Positions 9,166-54,219 of a stretch of DNA of 64,000 bases are shown in pieces. Position numbers and translations under genes: made by a program. The number at the start of each line of letters is the position of its first letter. Positions within the stretch are counted from its first letter, which is position 1. The stretch comes from Chiloscyllium plagiosum (Eukaryota): positions 6,619,378-6,683,377 of the forward strand of contig NC_057753.1 in NCBI RefSeq assembly GCF_004010195.1, written 5' to 3'. The notes beneath the pieces were generated by a model. The model saw nothing but the letters and a program-made list of their open reading frames with translations. It was not told the origin of the DNA and made no database searches.

Positions 9166-10049
9166 TTAGTTTGATTGTTTCTTAATAAACGCAATAAGTA
9201 ATGTCAGAGGATATGTCAATGTAAGTTTTAGCTGTTCTCTGAACTTAGATTGTGTTACCACGTAAATGAACGTGTTTGTGCAGCAGCTTAAATTACGCAG
9301 CATATATGCAAAGTTCTCAAATACATAAGCAGACGGGTCATCTAATAGCTCAGCAACATCAAAAAAATATAAAACGTAGATGAATCACAGAAGTATGAAG
9401 CTGCTGGATATGGTGAAGAGCAAAATGATAGACTTCCTTCTACTCTCAGCTCCAGAGTCTCCCTTGCTGTGACATTTGAGTCGTTTACGGATTCGACTGG
9501 CCACTAAAATACAACTGACTGTCACACCGTTGAGAAACAGAATTAACCCAATTGGTATCAGCGGTGTTAAAATCTTCTCAAATATACGAAATCCAATCCA
9601 TCTCGAGTCAGTGAAATAGATTGGTCTGTTAGAACAGCGCCAAGGTATGTTGTTGATAATCCTCCGTGGTCTAAATCTAAAGTATATTGGAATATTTTTC
9701 AAACACAGAATGATCCCTGTTGTTAGGAGAATCACTGTTGCAGTTTTCTTTGTACAATATTGAGATTTCAACTTTGGGCAACAAATAGCAATAAATCGAT
9801 CAAAAGTGAAAGTGACAGTGAACCAGACAGAACAGTCTGTGGCTGCGCGGAGCAGAACATAGCGAATACTGCACACAGGAGTGATTTCCAGGAAATTTGA
9901 TGAAAAATAATAATCATTGATTCTGTTCAGTACAACCTCAGTGATGATGACGAGGAGATCTGCTGTTGTCATGGCCAACAGGTAGCGAGTTGTGCAGGTT
10001 GATAGCCCACAGCTTTCCTTGGACAGGACTAAAACTGAAACTAAATTCA
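9166..10049 (-). pseudogene. GPR139/GPR142-like class A GPCR, paralogue 1, coding exon 2; premature TGA at 9385-9387
   Basis: Acceptor ctctcttccag (AG at 10051-10050). Encodes VNL...CGLSTCTTRYLLAMTTADLL (TM2), PVCS...WFTVTFTFDRF (TM3), KNIP (TM4), LTP (TM5), LLFTISSSFILL*. The frame continues past the stop: FIYVLYFFDVAELLDDPSAYVFENFAYMLRNLSCCTNTFIYVVTQSKFREQLKLTLTYPLTLLIAFIKKQSN, ending at TAA 9166-9168 and colinear with paralogue 2. Confidence 0.88.
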
Positions 10050-11144
10050 CTGGAAGAGAGGCAAAAACATGTATTTGGTAATAAAGATTGATTTGCTGTT
10101 TCTGATCAGCCATTAAGAACTTTTCGCCAGAGATGTATGCATTTGGCATTATCACAGAGTTTAAAGTAATGGAGAAATTAACTGTGTGACAATGTAAGAT
10201 TGATTCATTATTGCCAACAAGAATTCTCCATTCGTAAGCATTAACCATTTAATATCTACACATGTATATGTTGGTACTATGGCAGTGACAAAATACACTG
10301 AGCAATGAATCCAGTCTGACTGATAACTGCACACTTCCAAGCTTAACATTTTGGGATCTCATCCAATGTCAGGTTAATCCTGTGCAGTATGAGGACAGGT
10401 TTAGTATTTATGCAAGATCCTATGTATGTAATTAACTTTCACTTATTACTTTTTGTCGTATTAGCTGAGCTTCTAGCAGATCGCATTTGGTTTTGATTTA
10501 ACCACTACAAATTGAATCCGAGTCACTAATAGTTTAATCTTTAAAAAATTATATGATGATGGAGTGATTTCAGATTTCATCTCATAGGAAACAGGTTGTG
10601 TTCTATTTTTTGGGTACAAAAATGCAGTGTAAATATCCAATATTGAGTTCTTAAAAGGTAAGATTCCTGTAAATAGAGATATGGAGAATATAATTTCACT
10701 GCCAATTTTCTAAAATCAAAGTTTACCACTTTAGAATTGCCAATGATAAATGTACGGAAAAATGGTTTGAAGTCCCAGAATATTTAGCTTATGGAATTAC
10801 TGGTACATGGAATAATTGAGATCATTAGCTTCAGTGATGTAAGACAAAAAAATGGCGACAATGGCAGGAAATGCCAGTTGCTTTAAATGAGATTTAATAG
10901 ATGGAAGCTTTCATAGATCAGACAGTCAGTTATTACTTCATTGAACGAAAAGTGCTCATGTTTGCCCTTTGATATCTGACTTCAGCATAAATGAGCTACA
11001 TTAGTTGTACTCCCTCACAGTCATCTGTATGTATTGAATGTAATGATATGCTTAAGATTTAGTGATTCCAATTAAAAAAAAGTGATGCTCCCCATTACTA
11101 TGGTTTATCTGTGAGAGATCAGTGATCACTTCTCTCACTCATAC

Positions 11145-11297
11145 ACGAATACAGCGGGGCATGCCGGTAATCCGAAATTAAACCTACTCCAGCATCATCT
11201 GTGGAGAGAAAATAGAATTAAGTGGACATGAAAGATTAACTGTGCCCACAGATGATGCCAGGCTTGCTGTGATTTCCCAGCAATGTGTATGTTTGTT
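11145..11297. repeat. Degenerate short inverted-repeat interspersed element in the paralogue 1 intron
   Basis: gcatcatctgtgg...aattaa versus ttaac...ccacagatgatgc are reverse complements. The 3' part (gcttgctgtgatttcccagca) resembles the family-2 tail. Confidence 0.4.
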
Positions 11298-11693
11298 CTC
11301 ATAATCACATAATACCGGTTCCTCATTAACAATGACAAACATGCTACAATGTGCAATGAGTATACGAATGAAGATGTATGAAAGAAAGGAATAGTTAATA
11401 CAATAGAATTTGAATGCACACTCGATTCATTGCTATTCCGTTAATGTACACACATTTTCAGTAGAACGTTAAACTATCGAATGACAGAAACACAAATATA
11501 CTTTCAGGCAGTAGGAGGCAATTCAGTCCATAATAAATGCACTTGCTCTTCAATTAAAAATGCTTGACGACACTATGTTCAACCATTCTGCTTCCGTGAA
11601 CATACAACGGACTAACTTGTAAGATTATAAGTCTTAGAGAAATGCACGCCTCATGGAAAAAAACAAATAGCTTTACACAGATGAGAAACTTAC

Positions 11694-11760
11694 CAGGAAC
11701 TCCAATGATGGCAAGAATCAGATAGTATACTTTCCTCACCATTTGAATAGGGAGATGCAT
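11694..11760 (-). pseudogene. GPR139-like paralogue 1, coding exon 1 (67 nt, MHLPIQMVRKVYYLILAIIGVP, phase 1)
   Basis: ATG at 11760-11758 after an A-rich context. Strong donor CCTG|GTAAGT. Splices in frame to 10049 to give TM1 (IGVP-VNL). Same length and phase as paralogue 2 exon 1. Confidence 0.88.
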
Positions 11761-13369
11761 TTCTTTTTTCGCGTGACGTATTGTGTCCTTGCCTGTCTGA
11801 ACAATAGTTTGAATTAGGCTCTGAACCATTACATTCCGAATGCGTGATCCTTATGTATTCCAACATTTCTCACGGGAATCGGACGTTATGAAATTATTCA
11901 TAATGTTTTTAACGTACCTTGAACAAACAGCTTGTTGATGTCAAGCTATTTTTCAGAGCAACAGGCATTTTCATTGCTGATGTCATTATACGCCTTCACC
12001 CTGTCCACTCGATAAGACTAGGTATATCTCTCCATCAAGAAGTTGACATTGTAGCTTGCCTTACCGTTTACTGGTGATGATGTATCATGCAGGCTGTTTC
12101 AGGAATGTCTACTCTTCCAACTCACTGACTTCCCACAATTGACTGTGCAACATATTGGCCAGTGTTTATATCGGTTTGAGGCTGCCATTGAGTCATTATT
12201 AATGGAGTATTGAACTCGAAAGTTCCCTATGCTTTTCTCATTTCTTCACAGGTGCTTCCAAGACTTCTGTGTTCACCAGAAATTTCTCTTTTGCCAGAAT
12301 GAAACAGCATATCAGCTTTACACTTGTATATTCTCTCAAGTGTAGTGTATGCATGCCAATCAAAAGGACGCACTTGCATAATGTTCAACAATACACAACT
12401 AAATGATTAATAATGGATACTTCACATGTCCCACGTTAATGTGTTCAACGAGCTAAAGCATTTGAACACATCTACATGCCAAAGCCAATGCATAATAGAG
12501 TGCTTATCTTTGTCCATTGCCGTTAGTTTACCATAATCTGATATGTTTCATTGTTTTCGAAGTTTCTTTTGCCCCATAATGAACAATTGTTTTTTTTTCC
12601 AGTCGTATTCCTGTATTTGATTGGCTGTTTGTTATTGGTTATTAGCCGTTTTTCGTTCTGGTACTGGAAATATTTCACCTTACTTCTTCCTTCTTTTGGC
12701 ACATTATATTTACCAAACGAGCATAAGTAATAATGAGAAAAACAAGTCGTCCACTTGCTCTGCCGTATCCTAAACCGTCCAGCTGGCATGAACAGTTTCG
12801 GATGCTTTCTTCCTTTTGTCTTTGAAAAGCAGAGAATGATTCAAATGTTGAAATGATCAGTTCAGATTTTAACTGCACATCTTTGGTGATAACAAATGTG
12901 GTGGCCCATATATGCATAACTCCTGTCACTAACATCATTCTGTTGAAAATTTCCTATCAGTTTGTTACACAGTTTCCTGAAAAACCAAGGGTATATCACA
13001 AATGTAAGGTTCAAGTTTGATTAGAAATAGTGAGTGACCCAGGAGATAGGTCCGTTTGTACAAAGCCCCGATGGATATGTTGCAGTTACAGATTGATATT
13101 AGTGGCGATTTGCATAGTTTGTCTGATCACGTTACCAGAGGATTCAGCGACAAACACTGTATCATCGCACTGAGAATCAAACATATGAGTTGAATTTACT
13201 CATTTGCAGCGAAAATCTGTCATCACCAAAGAATGTCATTTGTATACAAAGACAAATGTTTCAGATGCAAACTACACACTTTACGCACAACCTCCTTAAG
13301 TCAGTTTGTTCTTTTGTAAATCACGTGGGTACACTGAGGATACAGCAGTTCACTGAAGAAGGAAATCAG

Positions 13370-14705
13370 CTGGATGAAAATGGTGCACGTGATACATTTT
13401 GTTGAGAAGATTCGGTAAATGCAGAGATTCTTCAAGTATATCAAAGAAAAAAGAAACTAGAGAAAGAATAGGAAACCTCAAACTAAAGTGAGCACGTATG
13501 TGTGGAACTGCAGCAGTTGGCCGAGGTTCTGAATGAATTTTTCTCCTCTAAGTTTTCAGTGGAGAAAGACATGAACATTTCCGAATGTGGGAACAATAGT
13601 GACAATTTATTGGGCACAGTTCTTACCACAGTAGAAGAGTTCTTGGATGTATTAGAATGTATGAAGCTGGAAACACCTCCACGTCTAGAACAGTGATATC
13701 CACGAACGCTGCAAGAGGCAGGAGAATAAATTGCGGGGGCCATGGCTGACACTTTTGCATCATTGTTATCCACGGATCAAGTCCCAGAAGACTGGAGATT
13801 AGCAATTATTTTCCTTCATTCCCGAATGTCTGCAAAGAAAAGCCTGGGGGCTGTATACCAGCACACACAAAACGTGTAGTCGGAATTTACTTGTGAAGCT
13901 TCTGAGAGACGAGAGACGTGAGACACACGCGTTTGGAAAGCGAGAGCTTGATTAAGAATAGATAGCCTGGCTTTGTGCATGTGAGATCATGCCACATACA
14001 TTTGTTGATGTTATTTGATCAATTGAAGAGAACGTTTGAAGAAGTCAGAGTGTTAGATACAGTCTACATGGATTTCAGTAAGACCAGTGATCGGGTTCCT
14101 CATCAGAAGCTGTTCTGGAAGGTTGGATTGTGCAGAATCGAGGCAGAGCTCTCAAATTGGATGCACAATCGGCGCCATGTTCGGAATCAGAGTGCAATAA
14201 AAGAAGGAGGCTTGTCGTACTGCAAACCTATGACGAGTGAAGTGCCTCAGTGGTTGACGCTGAGTCCATTGCTGTTCGCTATTTTTATCAAGGATCGTGA
14301 AATTTCAAATGCTGTTTAACATAGATAAGCGTTTGGTCTTGCGCGACGCAAAGTTAAAGCAAGGTAGGAATTGAACAAGGTAGGCGAACTGTTAGGGATT
14401 AAGGAATACACTGAAACAGTGGGATCTTGGTTTTCAGGTACATGTTTCTCTGAAGAGGAATCACAGGTGGATAAGACAGTGAAGACACACTGGCCTTCAT
14501 CAGTCAGAGTATTGAGTATCGAATTGCCAAGTAATCTTGCACTTGTACAGGACGTTAGTGAGGACAGTATTGGAGTATTGTGTTGAGACTTTTTTTCATT
14601 TTGCTTATGGAAGGATGTTATTAAACTGGAAAGAGTTCAAAAGAATTTTATGAGACTGTTGTCAAAACTTAACTGTCTGCGTTACAGGGAGAAGTTCGAC
14701 AAGCA
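13370..14705 (+). mobile_element. CR1-type LINE ORF2 remnant (RT region)
   Basis: Fragments LAEVLNEFFSSKFSVE, VLDTVYMDFSKTSDRVPH, TSEVPQWLTLSPLLFAIFI; many stops and frameshifts. Confidence 0.85.
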
Positions 14706-15039
14706 AACTGAATTCCTTAACTCTATTTCTTACTGAACTTGAGACAATCCTGATAATTAAGACGAGCTCCTACAGACAAAATGTTTCAGTCCACTTTTCT
14801 GCCAATTGTATATGACGATCCTACTGTGCCAGATGTTTTTTCTTTTTTTTTCTGATGATTGTATACGGAAATGCAAAAGTTGTGTTAGGTTCACAGACAT
14901 AACACTAAATGCACAACGCAACAGGTAAGTGATATGCCCCTCCAAAATCTCCTGTCAATTCAGGTAGTGAGGCATGGGTTTAACAGCCGGTCCATCAGAT
15001 GTGCAAGACTCCAGAAATTCATGCATGTTTAAAATTACT

Positions 15040-15740
15040 TTTCTACAGAATATCAGAGGAGTTACCTTGTAAGAACCGTGGGAAACTGGTATGCAGGTGC
15101 AACGCTAAAAAGAAAGGCAAATTGCATTTTGGCAATTAATGCAAAATTATAGTCTGGATAATTCTGTAAAATCACTGCAAATTAACAAGAAATTAGTGAG
15201 GCACTGTCCGGGATATTGCATGCAGTTTTGTTTCTCTCAGTAGAGGGATGCAGTTTTCATGGACGCAGCTCAGTGAGGGTTCTAAGGACTGATTTATAGA
15301 TCATGAGTTTGTCTTATAGAGAGGGATCGTGCAGTTCAACCCATACTCTCTGAAGTTTGGAAGCATGAGTTCTGTATTGAGTCAGGGATATAAGATGCTG
15401 AAGGAAATGGATAAATTAGATGCAGAATGGATTTTACTGATGTTAAGCAACATGGAAGAGAGGTCATAATTTCATAATACAGTTCGGCTCACGTTAAGGA
15501 TAAAGAATAATGCTTCGCACTTTCAAACAGATCAGAGTTAAATTGTTTCATTCAAAGTATCGTAAATATGTGGATTTCATTGTCACAGAATAGAGCGGCT
15601 GCTGCAATATTGAGACAGTTTCTGGCGAAGATAGATTTTTTAATCAACAATAGAGTGAATGGGTGAAAACACTGTCAAGAAGTTGAAATAATCGCTGAGT
15701 GAGAATTTTCTTTTCGAATAAAATGGTGGTACAAAGTCAA
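15040..15740 (+). mobile_element. Highly decayed LINE 3' region (CR1/L2-like)
   Basis: Nucleotide similarity to the 3' part of other LINE copies in the window (e.g. tagtgaggcactgtccgggatattgcatgcagttttg). Confidence 0.5.
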
Positions 15741-16226
15741 TGTGACTTTAGAGCGTGTGGCCAGCATTGTCAAAATGTCCGTAGGCATGTCTGACAAATA
15801 TTACATAATTTTTGTTCGTACAGTTTCCGTTGCTCCACAGAACAACAGAACCTGGTCGTTACACCACTCCCATAATCCACGTCTACTAGATTGTGAGACA
15901 CCATGTTTGTCAGCTCCAAAGCATTCCAAGTGTGTTCTCTCACTTGTTAGCCTTTCTGAGGAACCATTTACCCCACCACAAACTTGGCACCTCGTCCTCC
16001 ACACCCTTTGGCAAGATCTGAGATTTTGGCGGATTTTAGATTCATTACTATCAGTCATTCTGAGCACTGGTTTCACTGAGGTATAGAGCCAGTGAACGGA
16101 GTGGAACGTCCCAGAAGCTCTCTTCCTGAGTCTTTAACTCTCGAACTTTTACAGACGATCCATGAGATGTGATGTTCTCAATTCTCCCTGTTTTTCGGTG
16201 TTTCCCATTGGGTGAATTGTCAGCGT

Positions 16227-16795
16227 TGTGGACCAGGCCAAACTCCCTCAAAATATTTAAAGAAGGCTGCCCAGACCCTAACTTTTTTCTTTTTTAAGGC
16301 GGATATGAGTGGATCTCCCAGGAGCTAACAGCTGGTCAAACCATGCATCTTTCAGCAGAACAGAACTGAAGTAAACATTGCAGTTAAACACAGGGAAAAG
16401 AAAATAAAATTTAACATAACTTAACCATTTGAAAACAAACCGATTCGATGTAACGACTTAACTAAGGAACTGCTCCAATTCCCACAATAATACGTAAACA
16501 CATCCCATTCGCAACAATCGTAAATTGAAATGCAGGTGCTTAAAGGCAGGAAAGATTTCAGACAGAAGACTGCCATAGATATTCATCTAAAGCATAAACG
16601 CTGTTTGCACCTTATTAGCTTCTGTGCCAACTAAAACTAAACTACTTTAGAAAAAAAAACTGAACGGGGAGATAGGGCTACTCCCCTAACATTTTAAAGT
16701 AAACATTTGCAGATATTTCAGCACGTCTGACTTCACCTCTTTTCAAAAATGAGTGAAGGACAAAATAACGTTTTTAATGTAAAAGCATCATCAGA
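16227..16795. mobile_element. Possible solo LTR (~570 bp)
   Basis: Discrete non-LINE block starting TGTGGAC, A-rich, ending near catcatca. Recognised only by general resemblance to LTRs; no TSD identified. Confidence 0.3.
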
Positions 16796-16919
16796 ACAAC
16801 TGAAGTTCCAAACTCCTCTATCGGTTGCTGATTAGATCTCATTGAAACTCATTGGAAAGCAATTAATATTCATTACATACTTAGTTTGGTTCAGTTATTG
16901 TTTCACACTTAGACTCATA

Positions 16920-18200
16920 ATATCCCACAGGATGAAGATAGGCCCTTCAGAGAAAGTGTTCCTTGAGGACCAAATTGTCCATCCACACGAACGCCATGTT
17001 TGGGACGTTGGGCCGTATCATTCCAAACTTTTCCCATCTACGTATTTGACTAAATGCCTTTTAAATGTTGTTAATGGTCAATCCTCTGCTGGCGGCTCAT
17101 TCCATATGCATACCGTCCCCGAAAATATAACGTTGCTCACTCCCCTCAGGTACCCTTCTTGCTTGCCTCTCTAGTTCTAAACTAATGCTCGAAAGTCCTT
17201 GATTCTCACATACTGGGAAAAAAAGACTGAGAGTATTCATACTCGTCGTGCCACTCGTGATCATATACAATTGTATACGCTACACCCCTCAGAATCCTGC
17301 ACTCAAAAGAGGAAAGTTTTAGCTTGTCTATTCTCTCCCTTTAATTCAGAACGTGGAGTACTAGCAACAGACTTGTAATTTTGATCCGCTCTCTTTCCAG
17401 CTTAATAACATTTTCCTACAACAATGGGACGAAAACGCAACGCCATATTTCAAATGCGGATGCACTAATACCCTGTACAACTGAAACATAACTTCCCAAC
17501 TTCAATACCGGATGCTCTGACTGATGTTGGCCAGTGTGCCAAAAGCCTTCTTCATTGCCCTGTCTACCTTTGACTCCAGTTTTAGAGAATTGTGCACCTG
17601 AAAGACGAAGTTGCTTTGTTCCAGTACATTCCTTAAATCCCGACTATTCACTATTGATCTCCTACCTTGGTTTGTCGTTCCAACATGCAACGCCTCACAC
17701 TTGTCTATATTAAACACGATTTGCCATTTTTCGTCCCACGTCCTGAAGAGGTCAACGTTGCGGCAGTCACTGTTAACCTGCGTCAATGTCCAGTGAATCG
17801 CCCATTTTAGTGCTATTTGCAAACATACTGATTATGCCTTTTATATTATTTTACAAATCATTGATGCAGAAAACAAAAGCCAGAGGTACACCACTGCCCA
17901 CATGGATCCAATCTGACAAACGTTTTTTTTTTCACTTCTACCGCCTTTTTCCTGCCAACAAGGCAATTGTATGCCCAATAATTGCAGATCCCCGGATTCC
18001 ATGTGATCTCAGCTTAGTTAACAGCCTACCATTTGGAATCTTATCAAAGGCCTTTTAGAAATCAAAGAGCCTATGTATACCAGCTGCCCTCATTACTATT
18101 CTTGGTCACTTCATCCAATGTTACAATCTGTGTCAAACATATTAATCCGGGAGCGTAGAGAAATGAATTTGCGGCCATTGCTGAGGACTAAATGTTTATC
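16920..18200 (-). mobile_element. CR1-type LINE RT/3' fragment
   Basis: Minus-strand WDEKWQIVFNIDKCEALHVGTTNQGR...VHNSLKLESKVDRAMKKAFGTL. Confidence 0.85.
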
Positions 18201-18202
18201 GT

Positions 18203-18410
18203 CAGTGGCGGGAGATCTGGGGTAATAGAGAAGATAGGAAAGGTTGCGAGCCAGGAATTGGGGTGGGGCTGGAGCTGGGTGTGGGGGTGATGAAGAGCTT
18301 ATGACCGAAACGTCGATTATCATTCTCAGTCGATGGTGCCTGATTGTTGTGCTTTTCCAGCATGACATTATAGACTCTGATTTCCAGGATCTGGAGTCCT
18401 CACTTTCTCC
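18203..18410 (+). mobile_element. Penelope-tail insert with hammerhead core (family 2), preceded by a purine-rich, probably inverted, tail segment
   Basis: gTGATGAagagcttatgaccGAAACGTCgatt (18287-18318) followed by the family-2 tail ending gtcctcactttctcc. Confidence 0.65.
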
Positions 18411-20230
18411 AAGAACCTACCTCAGGCATCTCCCTTAAACCTTCCTTCAATCATCTTAACATTGTAGCCCCTCGTGATAGGCACTTCCACTTTGATAGAA
18501 ATTCTGTGGCTATCCTCTCTATTCATGCCTCTCACAACCTTGTGCACATTTCTATGAAATCACCTTCCATCCTTCTTCGATCCAATGAGAACAGCCCTCG
18601 TCCCCTCAAACTTTCTTTCAGAAGACATTCCTTCCAATTCAGGCAGCATCTTGTTAGATCTCTTCTGCACCCTCTCTCAAGCTTCAACATCCTTCTTATA
18701 CTGAGGCAACCAGAACTCAACACAATATTCCAAGGCTAGTCTAACCACCGCTTTACCGAGGTGCAGCATAACTTGCGGCTCTTAAACTCAACCCCCCTGC
18801 TAATGAAGATCCACACACCACACACCTTCTTCGTCAGCCCAAGCGAGAAGGGCGGCAACTTTGAGGGATCAATAGACATGGACCCCAGGATCTTGCCTTT
18901 ATGCCTGTAATCTGCATTCAAATTCAACTTTACAATATGTTCACACTTTGAACGCCATCTGCCTCTAATACAACCGCTGGCTGTGTATTCCATGCAACAA
19001 CCATCCTCTGTGTAAACAACCTACATAAGACATCCAACACAAACATTCCGCCATTATTTTAAACTTATGCCCCCACGTAATCGATATTACCGCCATAGCG
19101 AAAAAAGGTCTTTGGCTATCCACTCTATATTTCCCTCTAAAGGTATTATACATCTCTATCAAGTCACTTCTCATCCTGAATCGCTCCAATGCGAAAAGTA
19201 TTAGCTCCTTCAATCTTTATTCGTAAGACATCCCGGCAGCATCCTGGTCAATCTCTTCTGAACCCTTTCTGAAGGGTGACCACATCTTTCCTGTAATGAC
19301 ACAATCAGAAGTCAAAACAATAATCCAAGCGTTTACTAAGTAGAAACGTATAGAAGAGCAGCATAAACTCGCGGTCTAAAACTCAACTTAGGACTAATGG
19401 AAGCCAGCATAACATACGCCTTCTGAACAGCCCTATCAACCTGGATGGCAACTTTGAGTGATCTTTGAACTTGGATCCCAGTATAACTCTATTATTCACA
19501 TTGGCAAGAATCCTGCATTTATCCCTGTTTTCTGCAATCACTTTCAACTTTCAAAAGTGAATCACTTCACACTTTCCCAAGTTGAACTCCATCTTATCAT
19601 TGCAGTTCTGAATCTGTCAATATCCCCTTGGAACCAACAAGTGCCCTTCACACTACACATCATTCCACCAAACTTTGTGTCATCGGCAAACTTACTAACT
19701 CACCCTTCCACTTGCTCCTCCACATTATTTGTACAAAAATGACAGAACAGAGGCTCCAGACATAATTCCCGCAGAACACCACTCGTCACCCAACTCCAAA
19801 TATATTAATTTCCACCACCTTCTGTCTTCTATGGGCCAACCAATTCGGTATTCTGACACGTAGGTTTCCATGCATCCTATCATGTCCCTCCAAAGAAATT
19901 CATACCGTTTGATCTGCTCTTTGATATCTTGCCGTTGCTGCCTACTATCCACCTCACTATATATTTTTCTATCAGTCCTTGTAACAGCTGCGAAATTATT
20001 CATCTACCACTTATATTTTATAGTCAAATTACTGATGCTCATATCAAAAGCCAGGGCCCCGTTCCTGAGACTCTGAACGCGTCCCACCAAAAAAAACAGA
20101 CTTCCATTCACAGAAAATTTCCACTGCCATCAACATTGTTTGCTGACTTGCAGGATTTTAAAAAAAGGTAAATCTTGGCATTGGACCTCATGTCTTCTTG
20201 TTCAGTCTTCCACGACGGACATTATCAAAA
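18411..20230 (-). mobile_element. Stacked CR1-type LINE fragments
   Basis: KLERGCRRDLTRCC / GLFSLDRRRMEGDFIEM (18532-18723), ALERFRMRSDLIEMYNTFRGKYRVDSQ (18965-19213), reverse FADDTK at ~19675-19692. Confidence 0.8.
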
Positions 20231-20289
20231 CCATTGCTTAAGTCGATGTGGACGTCAGCAGATCCATCAGAGATGTCACACACAGTTCA

Positions 20290-27402: not shown

Positions 27403-27409
27403 ATCCAAA

Positions 27410-28834: not shown

Positions 28835-29290
28835 ATGTATAGTAAACGTGTTCTACTTGGCAAAGTTTTGACGCTGTAGCATTGTCTCTTCGTGTCCTCC
28901 AAGTCGGTACCCAGTCGAGAGAAGGAAGGACAAAGACTGCCAGAGGCCCGATAGCCGGTGCCATTTAAATGTTGCTTTCTCCCTCATCGCCTCTTATTCC
29001 AAAAATATTACTCTTGCTGTGCTCCACGCACGGAGATGTGTTTCAAGTGAAGGGTACTGGGTTCCCTGGGTGGCTTGTGAATTGAGTAGGAACGATCTTC
29101 GTGTGACATGCAGGGGTCTCTGCCCTTCACAATCTTGTACATTTCAATAAATTCACCTCTTTTCTGAAATCCAAAAACATGTCTCCAATCCATTTCAAAT
29201 CTCAGCATAGGAGAATCCGGGTGCCACACAGTACTCGTGGGTTTTAATCATTGTTGGTAGGTCTAGCATTTATTGACCAGAAGTAGTTGT
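28835..29290. repeat. Direct repeat copy B (similar to 23850-24330)
   Basis: Same colinear blocks as copy A, same orientation. Confidence 0.75.
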
Positions 29291-29439
29291 CCCGATGTTG
29301 ATCGGGATTAGCTGCCCTTTTGAACTGTTGCAGTCTGTGTAGCACAAGTACACCATTGAATATTTGCAGGACGGACTTCCAGGATTTTCATCCAGGCACA
29401 GGCACTGAACAGAGACATATCCCAAGCCAGAGTGTTGAG

Positions 29440-31330: not shown

Positions 31331-32450
31331 GAGTTGATTTCTTTCGAACAAAGTGTGGTGTAAATAATTTAGTGGTACGGGCAGAGTGGATAGCAAACAC
31401 TTTGCCCCTCTTATTCATATGGGTCTAGCTCTTATAAGGTAAGTCTAAGATGGCGTGGGAGTTAGACAGTTTCCCACTTATCACGTGCTCATGTGAATGC
31501 CTGAAAACAACGCTAATTCAACACAAGGAATTGAATTCATTAAAAAGATAGCATAATTGTTTAACCAAAAAGCAGGAAATTCGTAGGTTGCCTTTAAGAA
31601 AACTCTTCACAAAGGAAATGGCAGAATTCTTCAGTCACTGTTGGGGAGAACCGTTGAGGCAGAAAACCTCACAATTTTATTATTTAGTTAGATGAGCACT
31701 TTAATTGGGATAATATCCAAGGTTATGTGTTCAGTGCTGGAAAATGGGTTTGGTGTAGATTTATTTTAAGGTTCGGAGTAAATGTCATGAGATGTAGAAG
31801 TATTTCTGTACTCTTGGTTGCTAGCCACCTTTGAGTTGTACAGTTAGGTTTTTGTCATTTCTGTCATTGTTTTGTGAAGATATTATCTAGTGAAAGTTCC
31901 AACTGTTATAGTGGTCAGTATCAGCTTCAGGTGTAGTATTAAGCTGGTCGTTTTGAGATAAAATATTTCAAGTGTGTTTTTTCGCGGAATTAGCAAGTAA
32001 AACGATGGTGCAACATTGTGTAGTCGAACAGTCCACAATGCTCTGTACAAAATTCAACATTGAATGACTGAAATGACGGTAATCACTGAAAGAATACCGA
32101 AACATATGTAGACATTGAAAGCTCGATTGTCTAAAAGATAATGCAAGGTTTTCAGTTTGAACACAATTTGTAATTATCATTTGAGCCACAAAAGATAATG
32201 TTCCTGCAGTCCTTTGGGCATGCCTATCATTCTCATGATGTCATGTCTTAAAAATAAGCTGTTGTTGAAATCTGTTTTTCAAAATGGCATAAAGATTTGT
32301 AAGTATAATCACACTTCCCCTGTGGATAAATCACACAATATAAACTCATGTCTCTGGAACGGCCTCGTCTCCAATTCGGAGGGAATTCTCCAATTCTGAG
32401 AGATCACCCGAAGCAGTAAGAGTGACGTTGATTCTCAAGCAAATAAGAAA

Positions 32451-32517
32451 ATGTATTTTCCCAAGGCAATAATCTTAAAAATATCCTACACTCTGCTTGC
32501 TGTTATTGGTGTTCCTG
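32451..32517 (+). CDS. GPR139/GPR142-like class A GPCR, paralogue 2, coding exon 1 (67 nt, MYFPKAIILKISYTLLAVIGVP, phase 1)
   Basis: aagaaaATG at 32451; donor CCTG|GTAAGA; clear homology to paralogue 1 exon 1; joins in frame to 39965 across a 7447 bp intron. Confidence 0.85.
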
Positions 32518-33493
32518 GTAAGATCTTCAACAAGTGACAGCATAAAAAATACCCTGCTTTAATTCATACTTATTTCCAATCTACGACTACTAACCATTTT
32601 ATTTCCATTAAGTCGACAAATCTTGCTTCCAGGCTGCGGTGCCGTCACGTTCTGAGCTTATAGTGAATAGATTGTGATTTTGGGGGATGCCAAAGTTATA
32701 TGCAAGATTGCCTGTACTACTTAACCTTGCACAATGAGTTTATACTGAGGCTATACTAGTGGAGATCGGCTAAAGACTCGTTTTGGCTTGTCGAGAAAGT
32801 GTCTGTCAAGGCCATTCTGTCGGTGGTAATTCAAATCCGGCAGTCAGTTACATATGTTTTAAAATTTCACACATTTAATGATATTCGTTCATATAAACTA
32901 AGTAGTTTGCAGGTTTTGCTCAGGCAGCGAACTCCAAATATTAGTCGAAATGGGCAATTTGGTTTGAGTAGGTCGTTATGAAATGATCAGTCTGGGGTTA
33001 GCACGGATGGTTTCGAACATCTGTGCTTTTTTTAAAATTCTTTGTCTATGTATATGCATGATATATGTGAGCCCAGATGCCAGGAAGAGCTATTGAGCCA
33101 AGGGTTCCTCCTACGATGTACATGGTTGAAATGATTACATTGTTAATAACATATATGAGTTGTGACAGTTGTGAAGAAAACAACATGCATGATATTCTGC
33201 TGTGGAGTATAACATGATCAGTACTGAGATCCAGAGCAGCTCTACCACATATATTCAAACAACCTTGTTGAAAAGAATGTTGCCTATCTTGACATTTATT
33301 GTTGTTACCCTTTGACGTTCTCCAAAAGATAATGATCTGTCTGAAGTTCTTCTCATGTGTTCATTTGAATTTATTATTCAGTCTTTCCTATCAGTTTCAA
33401 CATGCATCTTTTCTACGACTACTTTTTCCTCCTCTAACTGTTATCATTGTATCTGTTGTTACTTTGATCAAACTGGCATTTTGCAACTGACAA

Positions 33494-33793
33494 GGGCGCC
33501 ACGGTGGCTCAGTTGTTAGCGGTACTCGGAATCGGTTCGATTCCAACCTTGGGCAACTCTACGTGGAGCTTGCACATCTCCCCTATGTCTACGTGGGTTT
33601 ATTCCCTCAAGCCAACGATGTGCAGATAGGTGAAACGGTGATGCAAAATTGCCAATATGCTTCAGGGATCTGCAGTTGTGGCGCATTAGTTAGGGGTAAA
33701 TATAGGATAATAAGGTAGGGGAATGGGTTTGGAAGATTGGTGTGAACTTGTTAGACCGAATAACCTGTTTCAACATTGTAGGGAGAGTATTCT
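33494..33793 (+). mobile_element. tRNA-derived SINE (HE1/V-SINE-like)
   Basis: Head gggcgccacggtggctcagttgttagc (A box), ggttcgattcc (B box), core gtggagcttgcacatctcccc...gtgggttt, CR1-like 3' tail. Confidence 0.8.
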
Positions 33794-34539
33794 AAAACTC
33801 TGGATCTATTCCTGCACTGATTCATTGTGAGATCTGCAGTAGTCTGTCAACTATCTGACCCTAGGGGTTCGGACGTTAGAGAGATGGGGACAGAACTGAA
33901 CGGTTCGCTAAAGAAAGGCAAGTTGGTTAAGATTGACAAATGCATAATTTCAGAAATTTCATAATACATGCTGCGCTAAGGTGTTGAGTCAAGAACGTTT
34001 GGCTGTATTGAATGAAAGTCGTCTATCCTGTTGTGAATTTCATTTGAAATGGTGTGCAACATTGACGAAGAGTTAAGTTGTGTGCTATACCTGGGTCACC
34101 ATGAGAATGATAATTCGTTCATCACACCACACCTAAAGGACATCAATGATCTATCCATGCTGATGTACTATATGGTCTTTGCCTCGTAGACTGGGAAAGT
34201 GGAAATATGTGGGAATGGTTACTCGTATGCATTCAATTTCCGGAAAGTCGTTCGTGCCTAATCCCTGTGCTGATCGCGGTTTACCCGACAGGTGAACATT
34301 TTCAGCTCCTTCTGGCTGGATAAACATAGAAAATTATAGCGCAGTACAGGCCCTTCTGCTTTCAATATTGCGCCGACCTGTGAAACCAATCTGAAGCCAA
34401 TCTAAACTACACTATTGCATCCTCGTCCATATGCCGAACGAATGACTATTTAAATGTTCTTAACGTTGGCGAGACTACAATTGTTACAGGCAGTGCGTTT
34501 CACGTCCTCACTACTCTCTGATGAGTAAACTACTTCTGA

Positions 34540-34748
34540 TTCGGAGATGCCGGTGTTGGACTGGGGTGTACAAAGTTAAAAATCACACAACACCAGGTTA
34601 TACTCCAACAGGTTTAATTGGAAGCACACTAGCTTTCTGAGCGACGCTGCTTCATCACCTGATGAAGAAGCGTCGCTCCGAAAGCTAGTGTGCTTCCAAT
34701 TAAACCTTTTGGAGTATAACCTGGTGTTGTGTGATTTCTAACTTTCTG
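34540..34748. mobile_element. Palindromic Penelope-derived insert (family 1) with 12 bp target-site duplication
   Basis: Arms 34572-34657 and 34660-34745 (86 bp each, 4 mismatches, 2 nt centre). TSD aactacttctga at 34528-34539 and 34749-34760. Confidence 0.92.
34656..34691 (+). ncRNA. Predicted minimal type I hammerhead ribozyme motif
   Basis: CAC-CUGAUGA-a-GaAGC-guc-GCUcC-GAAA-G-CUA^GUG: core intact, stem I CAC/GUG, palindromic AGCU in place of stem III, one mismatch in stem II. Confidence 0.65.
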
Positions 34749-36971
34749 AACTACTTCTGACATCTACCCTATATCTATCACCACTTAATTTAAAGCTTTG
34801 TCCCAACGTGCTAGACATCGCCATCCGAGGAAAAGGGTTCTCACTGTCCAATCTATCTAACCCTCTGATTATCTTACATGTCTCAATTATTTCACCTGTC
34901 AACTTTATTCTCTCTAACGAAACAGCTTCAAGTCCCTCGAACTTTCCTCGTAAGACATTCACTCCATACCAGGAAATATCCTAGTAAATCTCACCTGGGC
35001 CTTTTGCAAAGCTTCCACGTCCTTCCTCTAATTCCTTAACCAAAACTGTATGCAATACTCTAAATATGGCCGCACCGGAGTTTTGCACATGTGCAGCGTG
35101 ACCTCATGGTTTCGAAACTCAATCTCTCTACCAATCAACTCTAACACACCATATGTCTACTGAACAACCCTATCAACCTGGATGGCAACATTCAAGGATC
35201 TGTGTACCTGGACCCCGAGATCTCTCATCAACACTAAAATAATCTTACCATTAGCCCAGTAGTCTGCATTCCTGTTACTTCTTCCAAAGTGAATCACCTT
35301 CCAAAATGGAATTGTCCAATTTTGCTTAGATTGGTCAAGGTCATTGAGGTTCGATTACATTTAGGAACTACTCTACAACACTGCTGCTGGTTAAAGGAAG
35401 GTTGATTAGTTTTTGCTGAGGGATTCAAAGTATGTTGTGGTGAGAATTAGGTAATGTTGCAGGCAGTTGTGTTGTTGACAACTAACATTTGGAAGTATAT
35501 AAATATTTGCAATTAAGGTAACAGTGAGCCGAACATTATCATCGTGCATTAAAAATATCAGGGCAATTGCATCAAAACGTTGGTTTAGGAATATCTGACA
35601 TATTTTTACTTCACATTAGCGGAGAAACACATTTGATGAAACTATTTGATGCAGCAACGTTTGTTTCACCCATTCTGAAATGTTTCAGTTGAAGTAAAAT
35701 GCTCTCAATAGAGTATTGGGCGCCAATATATCAAACGAATTTCATTTGGCGGCTATAATACATTCAAATTTAGCAAGTATGCGATATACCTATATTACCA
35801 GAAAATAACACAATGCAAACATTTTCTAATATATTCTTGTGGAGGCATTTGTTCTTCTTTTGAAGTTCAGAATTTACTTCTCCAGAGGACTCTACTCACC
35901 AATGTGAGGAGATCTTTAATCCTTAACTATGCAGGATTGACGCACTTAAACATCAATTTACTTGGCACTGGATGGTGTAATAGTACTTTCTGATTGGTGA
36001 TATCAACGTATGTGATAACATTTTCAAGGTAAAACTACTTTCAAATATGCACATAAAAATGAAGTTTTGATAGCAACTTATAGACATTTTCACTGATTTA
36101 CTGAAACGTTATGTACTGTGGATCCAGATCTCTGCGAACCAGTTTGAGAGAGGGTATTACTAAGAATGGAATCGGACCGATGGCAATCATGAATACAAGG
36201 GTGGAATTTCTGAATGCAATGGACTCAGGTTGCTAGGAGGAATTGTCATTGTAGACTTGGGTTATTTGCCGTAATTGGACATTTTGGTGCAATATTCATT
36301 CTTTTCTGCGGGTTTCCGGAAAGCTGAATTACAGATCAGACAGGAGAATACTCGTCACGTCAATTGCAAGTATTATTGAGAATTTCCTTCATTGAAAAAC
36401 TAACATTTGATTTGGGTACCAGAATGATGGGAGCAACGGAGTGCTTTGAATTTTTTCCTCGTGTGGTTTTTGAAAAAATGTAGAATGACTAAGTCCAGTA
36501 AACAAGTGGATTTGGGAAAATCACTCAAAATAAAATTATATGAAAGGTCAGTCTCTAACGAGTGGAACGTGTTATTCTAACATAGCTGAGTAACTAATTT
36601 ATTTCAGTCAAATGGTCCATAAATGCAGAATGTTTATTGAAAACCACTGTTTTGACAGTGAATAATATTGCAGTAAGTTGGTTATGTTGGTTTAAATTCA
36701 ATCACCGCAGTCATTAGACATCTCAGCAGAAATTCTTCAGTGACATGTCCAAGGCCCGAGATTCTTCATTTACTTCATCAATGACGTTCTCTCCATTATC
36801 TTTTCCTTGTTGGAGGAGTTTGCAAGTGACATTCCAATGTTGAGCACTATTTTGACTCGTTCGATAATAAAGGGGTCTGCGCGCCTAAACAGTAACACAA
36901 CGTCTAGCTTGGGCTGAAAGTAACCAAGTAACATTTTCATCCCACAAGCTCTAAACAATGACAATCTATCA

Positions 36972-37153
36972 TCAGGGTTCCTGATGAAGGGCTTTTGCCC
37001 TTAACAATCGATTCGCCCACCTATAAGATGAAGGTTTTTTTTTTACCCGAAACGACGATTTTCCTGCTCCTCGAATGTTGCCTGACCTGCTGTGCGTTTC
37101 CAATTACATACTATCAACTCAAATCTCCAGCACCTGCAACCTCACTTTCGCCA
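36972..37153 (+). mobile_element. Family-2 Penelope-tail insert with two tandem hammerhead-like cores and a 15 bp TSD
   Basis: CTGATGAagggcttttgccc at 36981; second gatgaagg...cccGAAACGAC at ~37027-37057. TSD aatgacaatctatca at 36957-36971 and 37154-37168. Confidence 0.85.
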
Positions 37154-37279
37154 AATGACAATCTATCAATCTGCAGTTGGCTTACTGTCAAATTACCAAC
37201 ACGAAATAGCAAATTGAACCAACGTTGACAAGTAAATGGTATGATCTAAACAAACATGTTTTGTGTGAAAAGGAGGATG

Positions 37280-37815
37280 TCAGATAATCTACTAACATTA
37301 ACAAGAAACTCATGCCTCCTTACACAATCAATGTCCGCCAACCGCATTTCTGGAAGACTGCAGCTCCAGCAACACACAAGAAGATTCACGGTGTGCAGGA
37401 CCAACAGTCAAATGTGACAATCAACACATTCAGTGCTTACTCTATTCGCCAACAACTCACATGACCAGCAATGAAAATCAACTGCAAGATAAAAAGTAGT
37501 AATTATTTTTATATCTTTCAATAATATCTCGCAAAAACATGACCACTAATTGGAAGACTAAGGAGAGCAGATGCAGAGAAAGCGAATCACATAGAAGTTC
37601 GCTTTCAAGCTATTTTTCGATGCACTTGTAAACATATCATTATTCCATCACTTCTGTGGGATAAAAGTTCTGTAATTCTTCTCCAAAAAAGCAATACTGT
37701 CTTTCGTGCACGACATGTAATGCAGATGGGCAAAACTGCAGATCCTAAGCACCATAAAATGTGCTTAAATCTGGACAACGAGCTTTGGAAGACACACCAA
37801 AGTTCATACTCAAAG
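37280..37815 (+). mobile_element. Very old LINE 3' fragment
   Basis: Weak resemblance to LINE post-RT/3' UTR sequence; no intact motifs. Confidence 0.35.
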
Positions 37816-39274
37816 AATACATTTTAAACAGTCCATTACTACCACATCTGCATGGCGAATACTTTTGAATCGGATCGGTGTTAAGTGTCCAAGGACGTCT
37901 TCCATACGTCCGAGGGCAAAAAGAGTTTCCAAGGTGAAAGTTGGCTGTTGGTGCTGATGTATTGTTGAATTCAGGGTGTCGGCTGTCCAGGAGGATGGTT
38001 TGTGCCCTGGAATGTTTTGCCAAGTTCAATGAATTTCTTAACACTTGCTGGCTTCAAAATCAGGAGACGGATAGTTTGCTAAGCTTCTGTATGCTGATAC
38101 GTGTCTAAATATTCGTGTTCATTACTCCAGGAATTCAATTCAAGTGAAGGTTATTTTATCGACAAAATGGGTCAATTTTGGTACTCACTTTGTTACAATT
38201 GAACTTATTGTGGGGACATACAATCTCAAGTAATGATCGAAAAAAGGGAACAGCCACCTGTTCTGGGAAGTTGGCAGAGTATGCAGATCCACATTTACTT
38301 TCATTCATTAAAGTGATGTGAGCATCACAGGTTAGGCACCGAATGACCATCTCTAATTGCCTGGAGAGCAATTTATTCACACATAACATTGTGGATGTGT
38401 CGTTCCATGGAGGCCAGACCACGTGAGTATAACAAGTTACTTTCTCGAAAGGACATGAGTGAACGATGCAGACTTTTCCTGAATACTCCATCGTTTCATG
38501 CTCATCATTACTCCTCATGTCCATGCTTCCAATGAATTTATCTTCCATCTTCTGTCATGAGAGATAAGGAACCAGATCCACAGGTCATTGCCCAGATCAC
38601 TGAAGCAAATATTTAGTGATAAGACTCATTGGCAATCTAATTCCTTTATCTTCAGCATTGATCAGAATCCAGAGAAGCAGTAACTAACAAGGAATTACTC
38701 ACTTTTGATGATCTCCACTCAAAGTGCTCGTTAAACTATTTAGACTTATAGCTCCATGGTGTACTCCAAACACAAAACTGAGAGGAAATGTTCATTTTCA
38801 AGGACAGCGACTAGGAGTGGGGCTTGTATTTATGATGCAAGAAAAATAGCAGAAAGTATTACATAATAGCAGAGAATGCATGTGATTTTAAAACTGGAGT
38901 GTCGAAATGACCGATTACGCATGAATTTGGATTATATGTAACTATGAGTGGGGGGTTGTGGGAATCTTGGACATTTGGCAGAGAACATACAAAATATTAA
39001 TGGCCTTCTGATTCAGCAGTCACTAATATGTGATATGGTGGCGAGATTCACTACTAAATACTTCCATCGTTGAAGTTGTCGAGATGCCTAAACTTGTACA
39101 AAGAAAGGGATTCAATGCCCTATCATTTATTTATTCTTATTACAGTAAGGATCCAATGTTGAGAACGATGGATTGATTCAATACGGTGGTCATTTCGTGT
39201 GGTCAATTCTAGAGGCAATTGTTTTTGATGACCCTCCAAAACCAAATTCCAGAATTTTGCATTCAATGAAAAAG

Positions 39275-39583
39275 TTATATCTATAATGTGGAGGAAGGCC
39301 ATCTGGCATAACACGAACACGCCGAGCCAACTATCGTTATCCCACCAAGTCCTTTCCCCCTACATTTCCCCACACAAATGCAACTAACCTACATATCTAT
39401 GATCATTTGGGGGAAATTAGCTTGGCAAATTCACCGACCTGCACATCTTTGAACTGTGGGAGAATATCAACGCAGACATGGGGACAAAGTGCACATCCAC
39501 ACTGACAGTAGCCTATGACTGGAATTGAACGTGTATCCCTAGCGCTGTCATGCAGCAGTGTTAACCACAGAGCCACAGTGCTA
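39275..39583 (-). mobile_element. tRNA-derived SINE (HE1/V-SINE-like), reverse
   Basis: Reverse-complement head taaccacagagccacagtgc, B box ggaattgaac, core acctgcacatctttgaactgtggga. Confidence 0.75.
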
Positions 39584-39964
39584 CAGAACATGCGTTTCCC
39601 AGTCTTTGTTTTACTAATCTCTGGTGTCTTTGTGTGAATGTTGAAGTCTTCTGGTAAATTTCAGTCTGTAACTGTGACTTATAAATTTGATGTTGTCAAA
39701 TGTTGCTGACGCCAATAATACATTGAGTATATAAAGGTGATTCATAGAGCAGTCTGCTGAACATGTTCTTCCCTGTGCCTTTTAAACGTACAAACTGAAT
39801 CGTTTAGAGATATTTGCTCTTCTCATGGACATGCATTAGACATGATTTAACATGAAATAACAACATATGTACCCTAAATTCCAACATGCGATGTCTGGTC
39901 TCATGCACGGTGAATATTTGGTTAATAACATCCGTTCCCTTCTTTTCGTTTTCTTGTCTTACAG

Positions 39965-40851
39965 TTAATCTAGCGGCGATTGAATTCTTGTGTGGAGGCA
40001 AGTGTGGTCTATCTCCATGCACCACTCGCTATTTGGTGGCTATGGCGGCGTCTGATCTGTTGTTCATTATTTCCGAAGTTTTATTTCGTCGTTTTACTTA
40101 TTATTATTATCCCCGGTGTTTCCTGGACATCACTCCTGTTTGCAGTCTTAACTATGCCTTGACCTGCTTGGCAATTGATTGTTCTGTCTGGTTCACTGCT
40201 GCTTTTTCGTTTGATCGATTTGTTGCTATTTGTCTTCTCCCGATGAAACTGAAGTATTGTACTGCAAAAACGGCGAAGAAACTTCTAGCAACAATCTGCA
40301 TTTTATTTTCTTTAAAAAACATTCCCAATTACTTTCGATATAAATGTGCAAAAATGATCAATAATGTTCCATTCTATTGCGTTACCACTCGCAGTTTTAT
40401 TGATGACAGTCGGTGGACAAGTTTTCGATATTTTGAAAACTTTTTAACACCATTTTTTCCTTTCACTTTTATTCTCTTCGTCAATGTTCTAACAGTAAGG
40501 CACATTTTTCAAGTCAATAGAGTGCGTAAGGGATTGACTGGTCATCGAAAAATGGAGACTGACCCAGAGATAGAGGGCAGGAAGAATTCTATGACTTTAC
40601 TCTTTGCCATATCTGCCAGCTTCATACTTCTCTGGTTGATGCATATTTTAAAGGTCTTTCAAGCCACTTATCACTTAGACAGACGTGCTTTTCGTCTCTT
40701 TGAATTATTTGCAATTCTTCTGCGGAACTTAAGTTGCTGCACAAATGCATTTATTTATGTCGTGACACAGAAAACATTCAGAGAGCATTTAAAGTATACC
40801 CTGAAATGTCCATTTATAAAACTAATTCAAAATATTAAGAAATCCAAGTAA
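39965..40851 (+). CDS. GPR139/GPR142-like class A GPCR, paralogue 2, coding exon 2 (intact; spliced protein 317 aa)
   Basis: Long polypyrimidine acceptor ...ttcttgtcttacag|. Open frame with hydrophobic TM segments: VAMAASDLL, PVCS, FSFDRF, KNIP, ECL2 Cys, LTP, FILLW, CCTNAFIY, helix 8 FREHL; TAA at 40849-40851. Confidence 0.93.
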
Positions 40852-54188: not shown

Positions 54189-54219
54189 NNNNNNNNNNNN
54201 NNNNNNNNNNNNNNNNNNN
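54189..54219. other. Assembly gap (31 N)
   Basis: Run of N inside CR1. Confidence 1.

Follow-up and report, generated by a model that had tools for sequence, protein, structure and literature searches.

A 64-kb stretch of Chiloscyllium plagiosum DNA (NC_057753.1), hereafter the window, to whose positions all coordinates refer, carries two class A (rhodopsin-like) GPCR genes, A and B, that belong to an elasmobranch family which has almost certainly evolved by birth and death. As an account of the whole, we lean slightly toward the view that A and B are old paralogues of an elasmobranch-expanded, GPR139-related subtype that diversified into a repertoire for external chemical sensing. The literature searched held no description of this shark/ray receptor family, a large family with diversified pockets that is hidden beneath one misleading automatic name. 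A receptor family with a variable pocket matters because sharks are regarded as poor in chemical sensors. Were it sensory, the account of shark smell would change; were it immune, it would add a new repertoire of innate sensors.

Organization of the receptor pair

The first-pass annotation had described two 7TM paralogues of ~316-317 aa, transcribed divergently from ATGs ~20.7 kb apart. Frames of 316 and 317 codons were indeed found on opposite strands, with 20,691 bp between the start codons, but gene A proved to be stopped at codon 244. The features are as follows.

9166..10049, minus strand: second coding exon of gene A, spanning the remainder of TM1 through the C-terminus and interrupted by a stop
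9385..9387, minus strand: premature TGA of gene A, in frame at codon 244, the W6.48 position
10050..11693, minus strand: gene A intron, phase 1, 1,644 nt, GT...pyrimidine tract-CAG; the joined frame aligns with the family
11694..11760, minus strand: first coding exon of gene A (67 nt), ATG at 11760, GTAAGT donor after 11694; start codon, 22 N-terminal residues and first half of TM1
11761..32450, no strand: spacer between the start codons, decayed LINE fragments
12164..12171, minus strand: weak TATA-box candidate for gene A, 404 nt upstream of its ATG
32338..32345, plus strand: weak TATA-box candidate for gene B, 106 nt upstream of its ATG
32451..32517, plus strand: first coding exon of gene B (67 nt), ATG at 32451, GTAAGA donor after 32517
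32518..39964, plus strand: gene B intron, phase 1, 7,447 nt, GT...pyrimidine tract-CAG
39965..40851, plus strand: gene B coding exon 2, uninterrupted, 317-aa receptor, PF00001 E 5.2e-20

Both genes have two exons, with a phase-1 GT-AG intron within TM1 followed by one long exon 2, and both display class A GPCR features (PF00001 above cut-off, D2.50, D/ERx at 3.49-3.51, P5.50, N7.49 and Y7.53). Exon 1 of gene A sits 1.6 kb upstream of the long exon. It matches the family HMM (E 0.008), while exon 2 matches PF00001 (E 1.5e-12) up to the premature stop, past which the frame runs on to a TAA at 9168-9166. Because of the in-frame TGA, gene A as assembled does not specify a 316-aa protein. The position affected, W6.48, is W in 120/120 homologues of the best-120 alignment, and three DNA runs have C at 9385, i.e. 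mainly TGG. Since the assembly reads TGA and the runs mainly TGG, gene A is a broken allele, a broken copy or an assembly error.

The proteins are identical at 161 of 315 aligned residues (51%), in line with the "roughly half" estimated earlier, and the motifs CGLSxCTTRYL, DRF, KNIP and CCTNxFIY were all present as claimed, as were Y (gene A) or H (gene B) at position 6.51 and a short N-terminus (N1.50 is residue 24). The two diverge most, again as described, in ECL2 and at the top of TM6/ECL3, the least similar 20-residue segments (0.30), with ICL3 next (0.35).

Two further features had been presented as special and proved not to be. The short N-terminus also occurs in a single-copy amphibian gene and in a separate, conserved subtype (subtype II, below), indicating that it is ancestral. 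As for the head-to-head order, there was no sign of a shared promoter, and A and B are not closest relatives. A bidirectional promoter was rejected, as neither the 1.5-kb upstream regions (best E 0.28) nor the introns resemble each other. The candidate TATA 8-mer of gene A occurs 8 times in the window versus 2.4 expected. Recent local duplication giving rise to A and B was likewise rejected (AU p 5e-85, for a grouping chosen after the first tree). Within the spacer, RVT_1 was detected at 25963-26403 (E 4e-17). Across the 64 kb, the family HMM identified exactly two family copies and none above noise elsewhere in the spacer or window (next best E 0.53); a tblastn match at 34092-33961 (E 0.04) was unsupported by this HMM and was discarded as an extra copy. 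A 26-bp satellite was looked for as well and did not appear between the genes at score 30 or in the window at score 50.

Size, turnover and origin of the family

In a homologue search with gene B, 1487 of 1962 scored candidates matched at E<=0.001. The best 120 matches, which are the closest to gene B rather than a random sample of the family, all carried elasmobranch names and came from 12 species. Among them were 56 clusters from Heterodontus francisci, 26 of which lie on one chromosome-scale 74.5-Mb contig and are pairwise 58-99% identical. All 20 of the 50%-cluster representatives above 250 bits that were looked up were elasmobranch. Family members are auto-named 'probable GPR139' in databases. 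The gene A stretch recovered 706, 646 and 336 contigs from the three DNA runs, most at 90-95% likeness; contig depth was heaped on TM3 codons, and the summed depth was not taken as copy number. The family comprises at least dozens, and probably hundreds, of copies per genome.

In two trees, both built without true GPR139 and GPR142, which the homologue searches did not bring up, the elasmobranch sequences formed one clade (97/88; 98/96) that was sister to sequences from amphibians and sturgeon (100/98; 100/99). The amphibian gene was represented by 20 clusters with no species in two of them, and the amphibian/sturgeon sister gene appears to be single-copy. Within the elasmobranch clade, A and B were each closer to relatives in other shark genera than to each other, which implies that their subfamilies have long been maintained. 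Three GPR139-related subtypes were met: the amphibian and sturgeon gene, subtype II (coelacanth, sharks, ray-finned fish, amphibians and reptiles) and one anchovy protein. Descent of the family from subtype II was rejected (AU p 0.003, for a grouping chosen after the first tree).

Relation to GPR139 and GPR142

L-Trp and L-Phe activate GPR139 and GPR142, two orphan receptors of class A, and the automatic names imply that the shark proteins are their tryptophan/phenylalanine-sensing orthologues. Besides these names, the family profile favors such a reading, in that human GPR139 was its best match among solved structures (55.6 bits; next 37.1). Gene B alone, however, matched the GPR139 chain in two short stretches (E 2e-4), ranking below the prolactin-releasing peptide receptor, and each species carries many copies. 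The residues through which GPR139 contacts its ligands are E3.32, F3.33, H5.43, W6.48, R6.51 and N7.38/39 (PMC5430874, PMC12775434). At these six positions gene B has T, C, N, W, H and I, and gene A has L, R, K, stop, Y and Y. Across the 120 proteins, E3.32, F3.33, H5.43, W6.48, R6.51 and N7.39 were kept in 0, 5, 0, 120, 1 and 1. Since only W6.48 of the six is retained, we conclude that the family is not orthologous to GPR139; orthology to either receptor is largely refuted and very improbable. With the other five residues gone, the link to Trp/Phe sensing is also weak.

By sequence, the family is nonetheless within the wider GPR139-related group, with GPR139 as its nearest characterised receptor. 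GPR139 was also the first solved-structure match of the amphibian, coelacanth and lancelet-like relatives. Like GPR139, the family has a similar start of TM6, lacks the NPxxY proline in TM7 and keeps W6.48. Unlike GPR139, it has lost P6.50 (0/120), it carries the TM3 and ECL2 cysteines (118/120 and 120/120), the former being absent from the aligned GPR139, and it has many copies rather than one. Taken together, the copy number, clustering, trees and lost ligand residues bear out the first-pass annotation in viewing these genes as a clustered family that is specific to its lineage and shaped by birth and death, not as GPR139 orthologues; neither the low copy number, nor the one-to-one orthology, nor the place in another receptor clade that it had set against this view was found.

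PMC6504862 describes unnamed orphan subtypes related to GPR139 in non-mammalian vertebrates, namely GPR210A, GPR210B and a third set, in a text containing neither 'shark' nor 'cartilaginous'. Its Ensembl ids were unmatched to the present proteins, and the subtypes met here are not equated with GPR210A or B. These subtypes share the short N-terminus of the shark family and differ in being slow to change, with fixed pockets and about one gene per species as far as seen.

Variability of the binding pocket

We compared heterogeneity at 31 pocket positions, chosen by generic class A GPCR numbering rather than from a structure, with that at 183 other TM positions. Among the 120 shark/ray proteins, the pocket was about twice as variable (0.58 vs 0.28), while 76 cytoplasmic positions scored 0.19. 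The contrast persisted when the comparison set was the non-pocket positions of the outer half (0.58 vs 0.34, p 2e-5) and inside one species (0.56 vs 0.29, p 7e-6), and A and B themselves differ at 20/30 pocket versus 77/183 other TM positions (p 0.01). It was reversed in both the amphibian gene (20 proteins; pocket 0.03, other TM 0.19) and subtype II (52 proteins; 0.22 and 0.35). These patterns suggest that the family copies have likely diversified in the ligands they bind. A variable pocket with a fixed cytoplasmic face fits immune sensors, or relaxed constraint confined to the pocket, as well.

One alternative holds that the repeat-rich chromosomes of sharks produced most of the expansion incidentally, through segmental duplication, with few copies that matter and pocket variation reflecting relaxed constraint. 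Consistent with this, gene A is broken as assembled, 7 of the 8 coding differences listed between gene A and the DNA runs alter or end the protein, and LINE fragments fill the window; in batoids, tandem duplication tends to increase with genome size, according to 10.1101/2025.06.08.657570. An incidental origin of this kind is nevertheless rather unlikely, given an overall pairwise dN/dS between A and B of 0.27 at dS about 1.4, cytoplasmic loops nearly invariant over 120 proteins, variation concentrated in the pocket instead of spread evenly, and subfamilies kept long enough for A and B to have closer relatives in other genera.

The main rival to the chemosensory reading is an immune or barrier role, in which the receptors would act in leukocytes, skin or gut as sensors of microbial or parasite peptides or irritants, much as MRGPR or formyl peptide receptors. 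Mammalian MRGPR and formyl peptide receptors belong to class A, lie in clusters, have pockets that change fast, and are used in sensory neurons and immune cells. They form an unrelated clade, and neither was among the 60 best solved-structure matches listed. Clusters, apparent turnover, a variable pocket and a fixed cytoplasmic face are the same signatures in either case, and cartilaginous fish are described in PMC8455134 as without MAS1 and related receptors, leaving the role vacant. The nearest solved folds are also peptide receptors: a predicted model of gene B exon 2 (pLDDT 78.7; helical bundle with an ECL2 hairpin) returned peptide-type receptors as its top 50 Foldseek hits at TM 0.54-0.70, although the search was non-discriminating, and GPR139 was absent from those 50. 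A lead favoring sensory reuse of this receptor group instead comes from a comparison by features, in which nematode Srw-bearing clusters and lineage-specific invertebrate clusters ranked among the nearest. According to PMC8514136, the wider group that includes GPR139/142 also takes in invertebrate SPR/MIP, FMRFamide and nematode Srw receptors; these are separate expansions in other phyla. Weighing these points, we regard the immune or barrier role as unlikely, though not remote.

A possible repertoire for external chemical sensing

The external-sensing account, in steps, would run as follows. An ancestral jawed-vertebrate gene would live on in amphibians and sturgeon, apparently in single copy and with a fixed pocket resembling that of GPR139. 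Sharks and rays have many duplicates of this gene, arranged in clusters, with A and B as old paralogues within the expansion and with copies apparently continuing to be lost. Pocket-lining residues have diversified while the cytoplasmic face stayed almost constant, so that each copy most likely binds a different water-soluble ligand and all copies would feed one predicted G-protein pathway. The putative ligands are of the amino-acid, amine or peptide type, because the pocket is polar and charged and the kinship is with peptide receptors. The chances that this repertoire serves external sensing in nose, mouth or skin are about even.

Like the OR, TAAR, ORA/V1R and TAS2R families, the shark family is clustered, with many paralogues, a compact gene, a short N-terminus, a variable pocket and, in gene A, a candidate broken copy. 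Unlike them, it is kin to GPR139 and its sensory role is putative; none of the OR, TAAR, ORA or TAS2R profiles matched, and only PF00001 passed the cut-off. TAARs, too, derive from a brain-type receptor, according to PMC8890504. An olfactory version of the account, which we hold to be possible but doubtful, is that these genes form a fifth olfactory receptor family, specific to sharks and rays, larger than the V2R family, expressed as one or few per nose neuron and derived from an amino-acid-sensing GPR139-like receptor. If true, this would explain good smell despite about 65 known chemoreceptor genes. The single-copy amphibian sister (Xenopus, axolotl) offers a tractable model of the ancestral receptor.

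Expression and context

In one RNA run (single-cell polyA, tissue not given, ~2% read), 10 partial reads matched at 90-95% likeness, none of them gene A's own transcripts; they show at most the presence of a paralogue in the library. A run search with exon 2 of gene B listed no RNA run, which speaks neither for nor against expression. Among catshark genes, the top 50 specific to a brain and olfactory library contained no GPCR (PMC11979771), a weak negative for low-expressed receptors. The same paper also reports catshark V2R genes as expressed in testis and rectal gland. This would suit a family that works not in the external senses but in reproduction or in signalling inside the body, such as testis or sperm functions, pheromone sensing or gut-nutrient sensing, as would the inclusion of sex peptide and MIP receptors in the wider group (PMC8514136). 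Internal ligands are few, however, and receptors for them usually keep their pockets fixed; the amphibian gene and subtype II show such fixed pockets, so that we consider an internal role improbable.

Cartilaginous fish are described as GPCR-poor generally (PMC8455134) and as having few chemoreceptors, the known chemosensory repertoire of the catshark being given as only 65 genes, with gene births rare (PMC6368271). A preprint on the Greenland shark proposes that sharks may use non-traditional olfactory mechanisms.

Two divergent GPR139-like receptor genes

The window consists of vertebrate DNA rich in repeats, including decayed LINE fragments, and is interrupted by short N gaps. It contains two class A GPCR genes, A and B; a third copy of their family was not found within the 64 kb. 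Their structures are as follows.

11760-11694, minus strand: gene A exon 1, 67 nt
Between 11694 and 10049, minus strand: gene A intron, 1,644 nt, phase 1
10049-9166, minus strand: gene A exon 2
32451-32517, plus strand: gene B exon 1, 67 nt
Between 32517 and 39965, plus strand: gene B intron, 7,447 nt, phase 1
39965-40851, plus strand: gene B exon 2

The two ATGs are 20,691 bp apart, and the human GPR139 intron presumably lies at the same place as those of genes A and B. The encoded proteins are identical at 161 of 315 aligned residues (dN 0.39, dS 1.43, ratio 0.27), and the shared motifs, short N-terminus and 6.51 residues reported by the first-pass annotation were correct. Upstream of the gene A ATG, at 11797-11916 on the minus strand, donor-like and acceptor-like sites were noted by eye; these could delimit a small 5'-UTR intron.

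A large elasmobranch family

A search with gene B exon 2 matched 1487 of 1962 scored candidates. The best 120 matches all bore shark or ray names, nearly all annotated 'probable GPR139': Heterodontus 56, Pristiophorus 16, Mustelus 15, Cetorhinus 6, Chiloscyllium 5, Scyliorhinus canicula 5, Stegostoma 4, S. torazame 4, Heptranchias 3, Rhincodon 3, Mobula 2 and Rhinoraja 1. A single 74.5-Mb contig carries 26 of the Heterodontus matches among these 120, and a second contig carries 8. Extrapolating from the best 120 of these 1487 matches, a genome may hold hundreds of copies. Annotation-based counts are unreliable since many database models (proteins P0002, P0003, P0004, P0087 and others) start with an incorrect or fused N-terminus, or repeat part of the C-terminus, probably as a result of skipping the 67-nt first exon and merging neighbouring copies.

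A profile of 45 rows retrieved 132 representatives at E<=1e-30 among 1.84 billion, and 30 of the 150 listed were looked up for species. All 20 looked-up representatives scoring >250 bits came from elasmobranchs and none from a chimaera. The remaining 10 were one protein each from a salamander and a coelacanth, two each from teleosts and lancelets, and four that lacked a species name.

Origin of the family

The salamander protein was the top-scoring non-elasmobranch relative among those looked up. Searching with it returned 25 matches of 1675 candidates, namely 20 amphibian clusters (query included), one sturgeon protein and four elasmobranch proteins. The amphibian clusters are 66-74% identical to the query and no two share a species; this GPR139-related receptor of amphibians and sturgeon is apparently single-copy. 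The search was limited by shared words and recovered only four shark copies, so that the lack of other groups among its matches does not show that they are without the gene. The amphibian gene (P0228, P0273-P0292) occurs in frogs, salamanders, caecilians and sturgeon, carries N in place of D at 2.50, has an almost invariant pocket, and is auto-named GPR139, to which it is only distant kin. A search with the coelacanth protein (145 matches of 1739) defined a separate GPR139-related set, subtype II (P0233, P0308-P0425), which is conserved from sharks to reptiles, with no mammal or bird among 120 listed rows, and includes slow shark members at 60-66%.

In a 60-row tree, 42 elasmobranch family rows formed a clade (97/88) whose sister was amphibians plus sturgeon (100/98), with subtype II apart; a 25-row tree with lancelet outgroups agreed on these groupings (98/96; 100/99). 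Two groupings, named for testing after the first tree, were rejected on the 25-row tree: the family with subtype II (p 0.003), and genes A and B as sisters (p 5e-85).

The closest partner of gene B was a Stegostoma protein (67%), and those of gene A were Mustelus and Scyliorhinus proteins (69-71%). Since each pairs with proteins of other genera, the split between genes A and B is ancient, and their head-to-head order is probably incidental.

Both trees were built without true GPR139 and GPR142; solved-structure searches are what tie the family to these receptors. The family profile placed human GPR139 first, at 55.6 bits vs 37.1 for the next structure, and GPR139 was also top for the salamander, coelacanth and lancelet-like proteins. 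For gene B alone GPR139 was not the top match; a fold search with the gene B model (pLDDT 78.7) led to general peptide receptors, with GPR139 absent from the top 50.

We compared the GPR139 ligand residues named in the accessible parts of PMC5430874 and PMC12775434. The family retains W6.48 (120/120) and nearly no other ligand residue, and it has also lost P6.50 (0/120). The amphibian gene keeps F3.33, W6.48, P6.50 and N7.39 in 20/20, with Lys at 6.51. Subtype II lacks W6.48 (0/52) but keeps R6.51 (52/52). Between 24 and 26 residues precede 1.50 in 18/20 amphibian proteins; common to family, amphibian and subtype II proteins, the short N-terminus is ancestral.

A variable pocket above a conserved cytoplasmic face

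Gene B was numbered from class A anchors, and the pocket was represented by 31 generic positions. Variability is the probability that a given site differs between two sequences. Among 120 shark and ray proteins, the pocket scored 0.58, compared with 0.28 for the remaining TM sites and 0.19 for the cytoplasmic side. Values for pocket vs other TM sites were 0.03 vs 0.19 in 20 amphibian orthologues and 0.22 vs 0.35 in 52 subtype II proteins (the best named matches of the coelacanth search, 68 lower rows being excluded). Restricting the comparison to outer-half non-pocket sites gave 0.58 vs 0.34 for sharks and rays, with the contrast still reversed in both controls, and within Heterodontus alone the pocket stood at 0.56 vs 0.29.

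The family consists of many clustered paralogues with a nearly fixed cytoplasmic face and a variable pocket, under purifying selection overall, while its sister gene is single-copy-like with a fixed, GPR139-like pocket. It is an independent receptor repertoire derived from a GPR139-related orphan, and the earlier reading of a lineage expansion, not GPR139 orthologues, was right. Every copy would bind its own water-soluble ligand, all would signal via one common G protein, and the ancestral ligand may have been amino-acid-like. We give external chemosensation about an even chance of being the family's role and put a role in immunity or at barriers at one in four, leaving the rest to neutral expansion and internal signalling jointly.

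A premature stop in gene A

The first-pass annotation described the receptor pair accurately, except that it overlooked a stop in gene A: codon 244, which corresponds to W6.48, is TGA. Four runs (three DNA, one RNA) were aligned to 8300-12100. All three DNA runs carry C at position 9385, which gives TGG, at depths of 40.6/40.6 in one sample and 162.9/162.9 in another sample of organism A, and of 371.4/510 in organism B. Each of these runs differs from the window. The 40 differences with the best support (321 more exist) include 8 coding sites, of which six are missense, one is the stop and one is silent, and one of the listed coding differences involves Ser where 101/120 homologues have Pro. 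These findings fit gene A being a decaying allele or recent duplicate of which the intact form is common; the stop could instead be an assembly error or chimera. In run X5, single contigs at 9272-9441 and 11837-12059 reach depths of 163 and 121 vs ~37-39 nearby, which may reflect several near-identical gene A copies in that individual.

The RNA run, a single-cell polyA library of unstated tissue (12.96 million records, ~2% read), yielded 10 partial reads on the gene A stretch, with a likeness of 90-95%. Five of these have a loose end in common, which reads by hand as VCNIHAVLLY, a motif that also occurs in 8 of the family proteins collected. A paralogue rather than gene A may therefore be transcribed in that sample; genomic carry-over is a possible source of such reads.

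Published receptor repertoires

We found no published description of the elasmobranch expansion in the literature searched, most subscription papers being outside its scope. The accessible text of PMC6504862 describes GPR210A and B as GPR139/142-related orphans in fishes and coelacanth, without mention of sharks. In the accessible parts of the other sources, 65 catshark chemoreceptor genes are given (PMC6368271), a 'paucity' of GPCRs is reported (PMC8455134, whose supplements, as far as available, contain a single orthogroup labelled GPR142 and lack GPR139), and only the four known olfactory families are covered (PMC11979771). The available text of a Greenland shark preprint (10.1101/2025.02.19.638963) suggests non-traditional olfactory mechanisms, and that of the Squalomix preprint (10.1101/2025.06.08.657570) describes a tandem-cluster scan that mentions SUCNR1 and V2R; the latter's supplementary cluster table may list the family.

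Repeats in the window

Decayed LINE reverse-transcriptase/endonuclease fragments, some with Pfam RVT_1 or Exo_endo_phos_2 matches, lie at the following positions.

25053-27218, plus strand: LINE fragment
44305-46610, minus strand: LINE fragment
53187-54580, minus strand: LINE fragment
57572-57853, plus strand: LINE fragment

A short frame at 55-339 (minus strand), which by eye we take to resemble the GIY-YIG endonuclease of a Penelope-type element, had no match in a Pfam search. A 26-bp satellite was looked for between the two genes and is absent there. Within the first LINE fragment, at 25657-25987, a 161-bp unit occurs in two copies at 93%, which may stem from local duplication or from overlap in the assembly.
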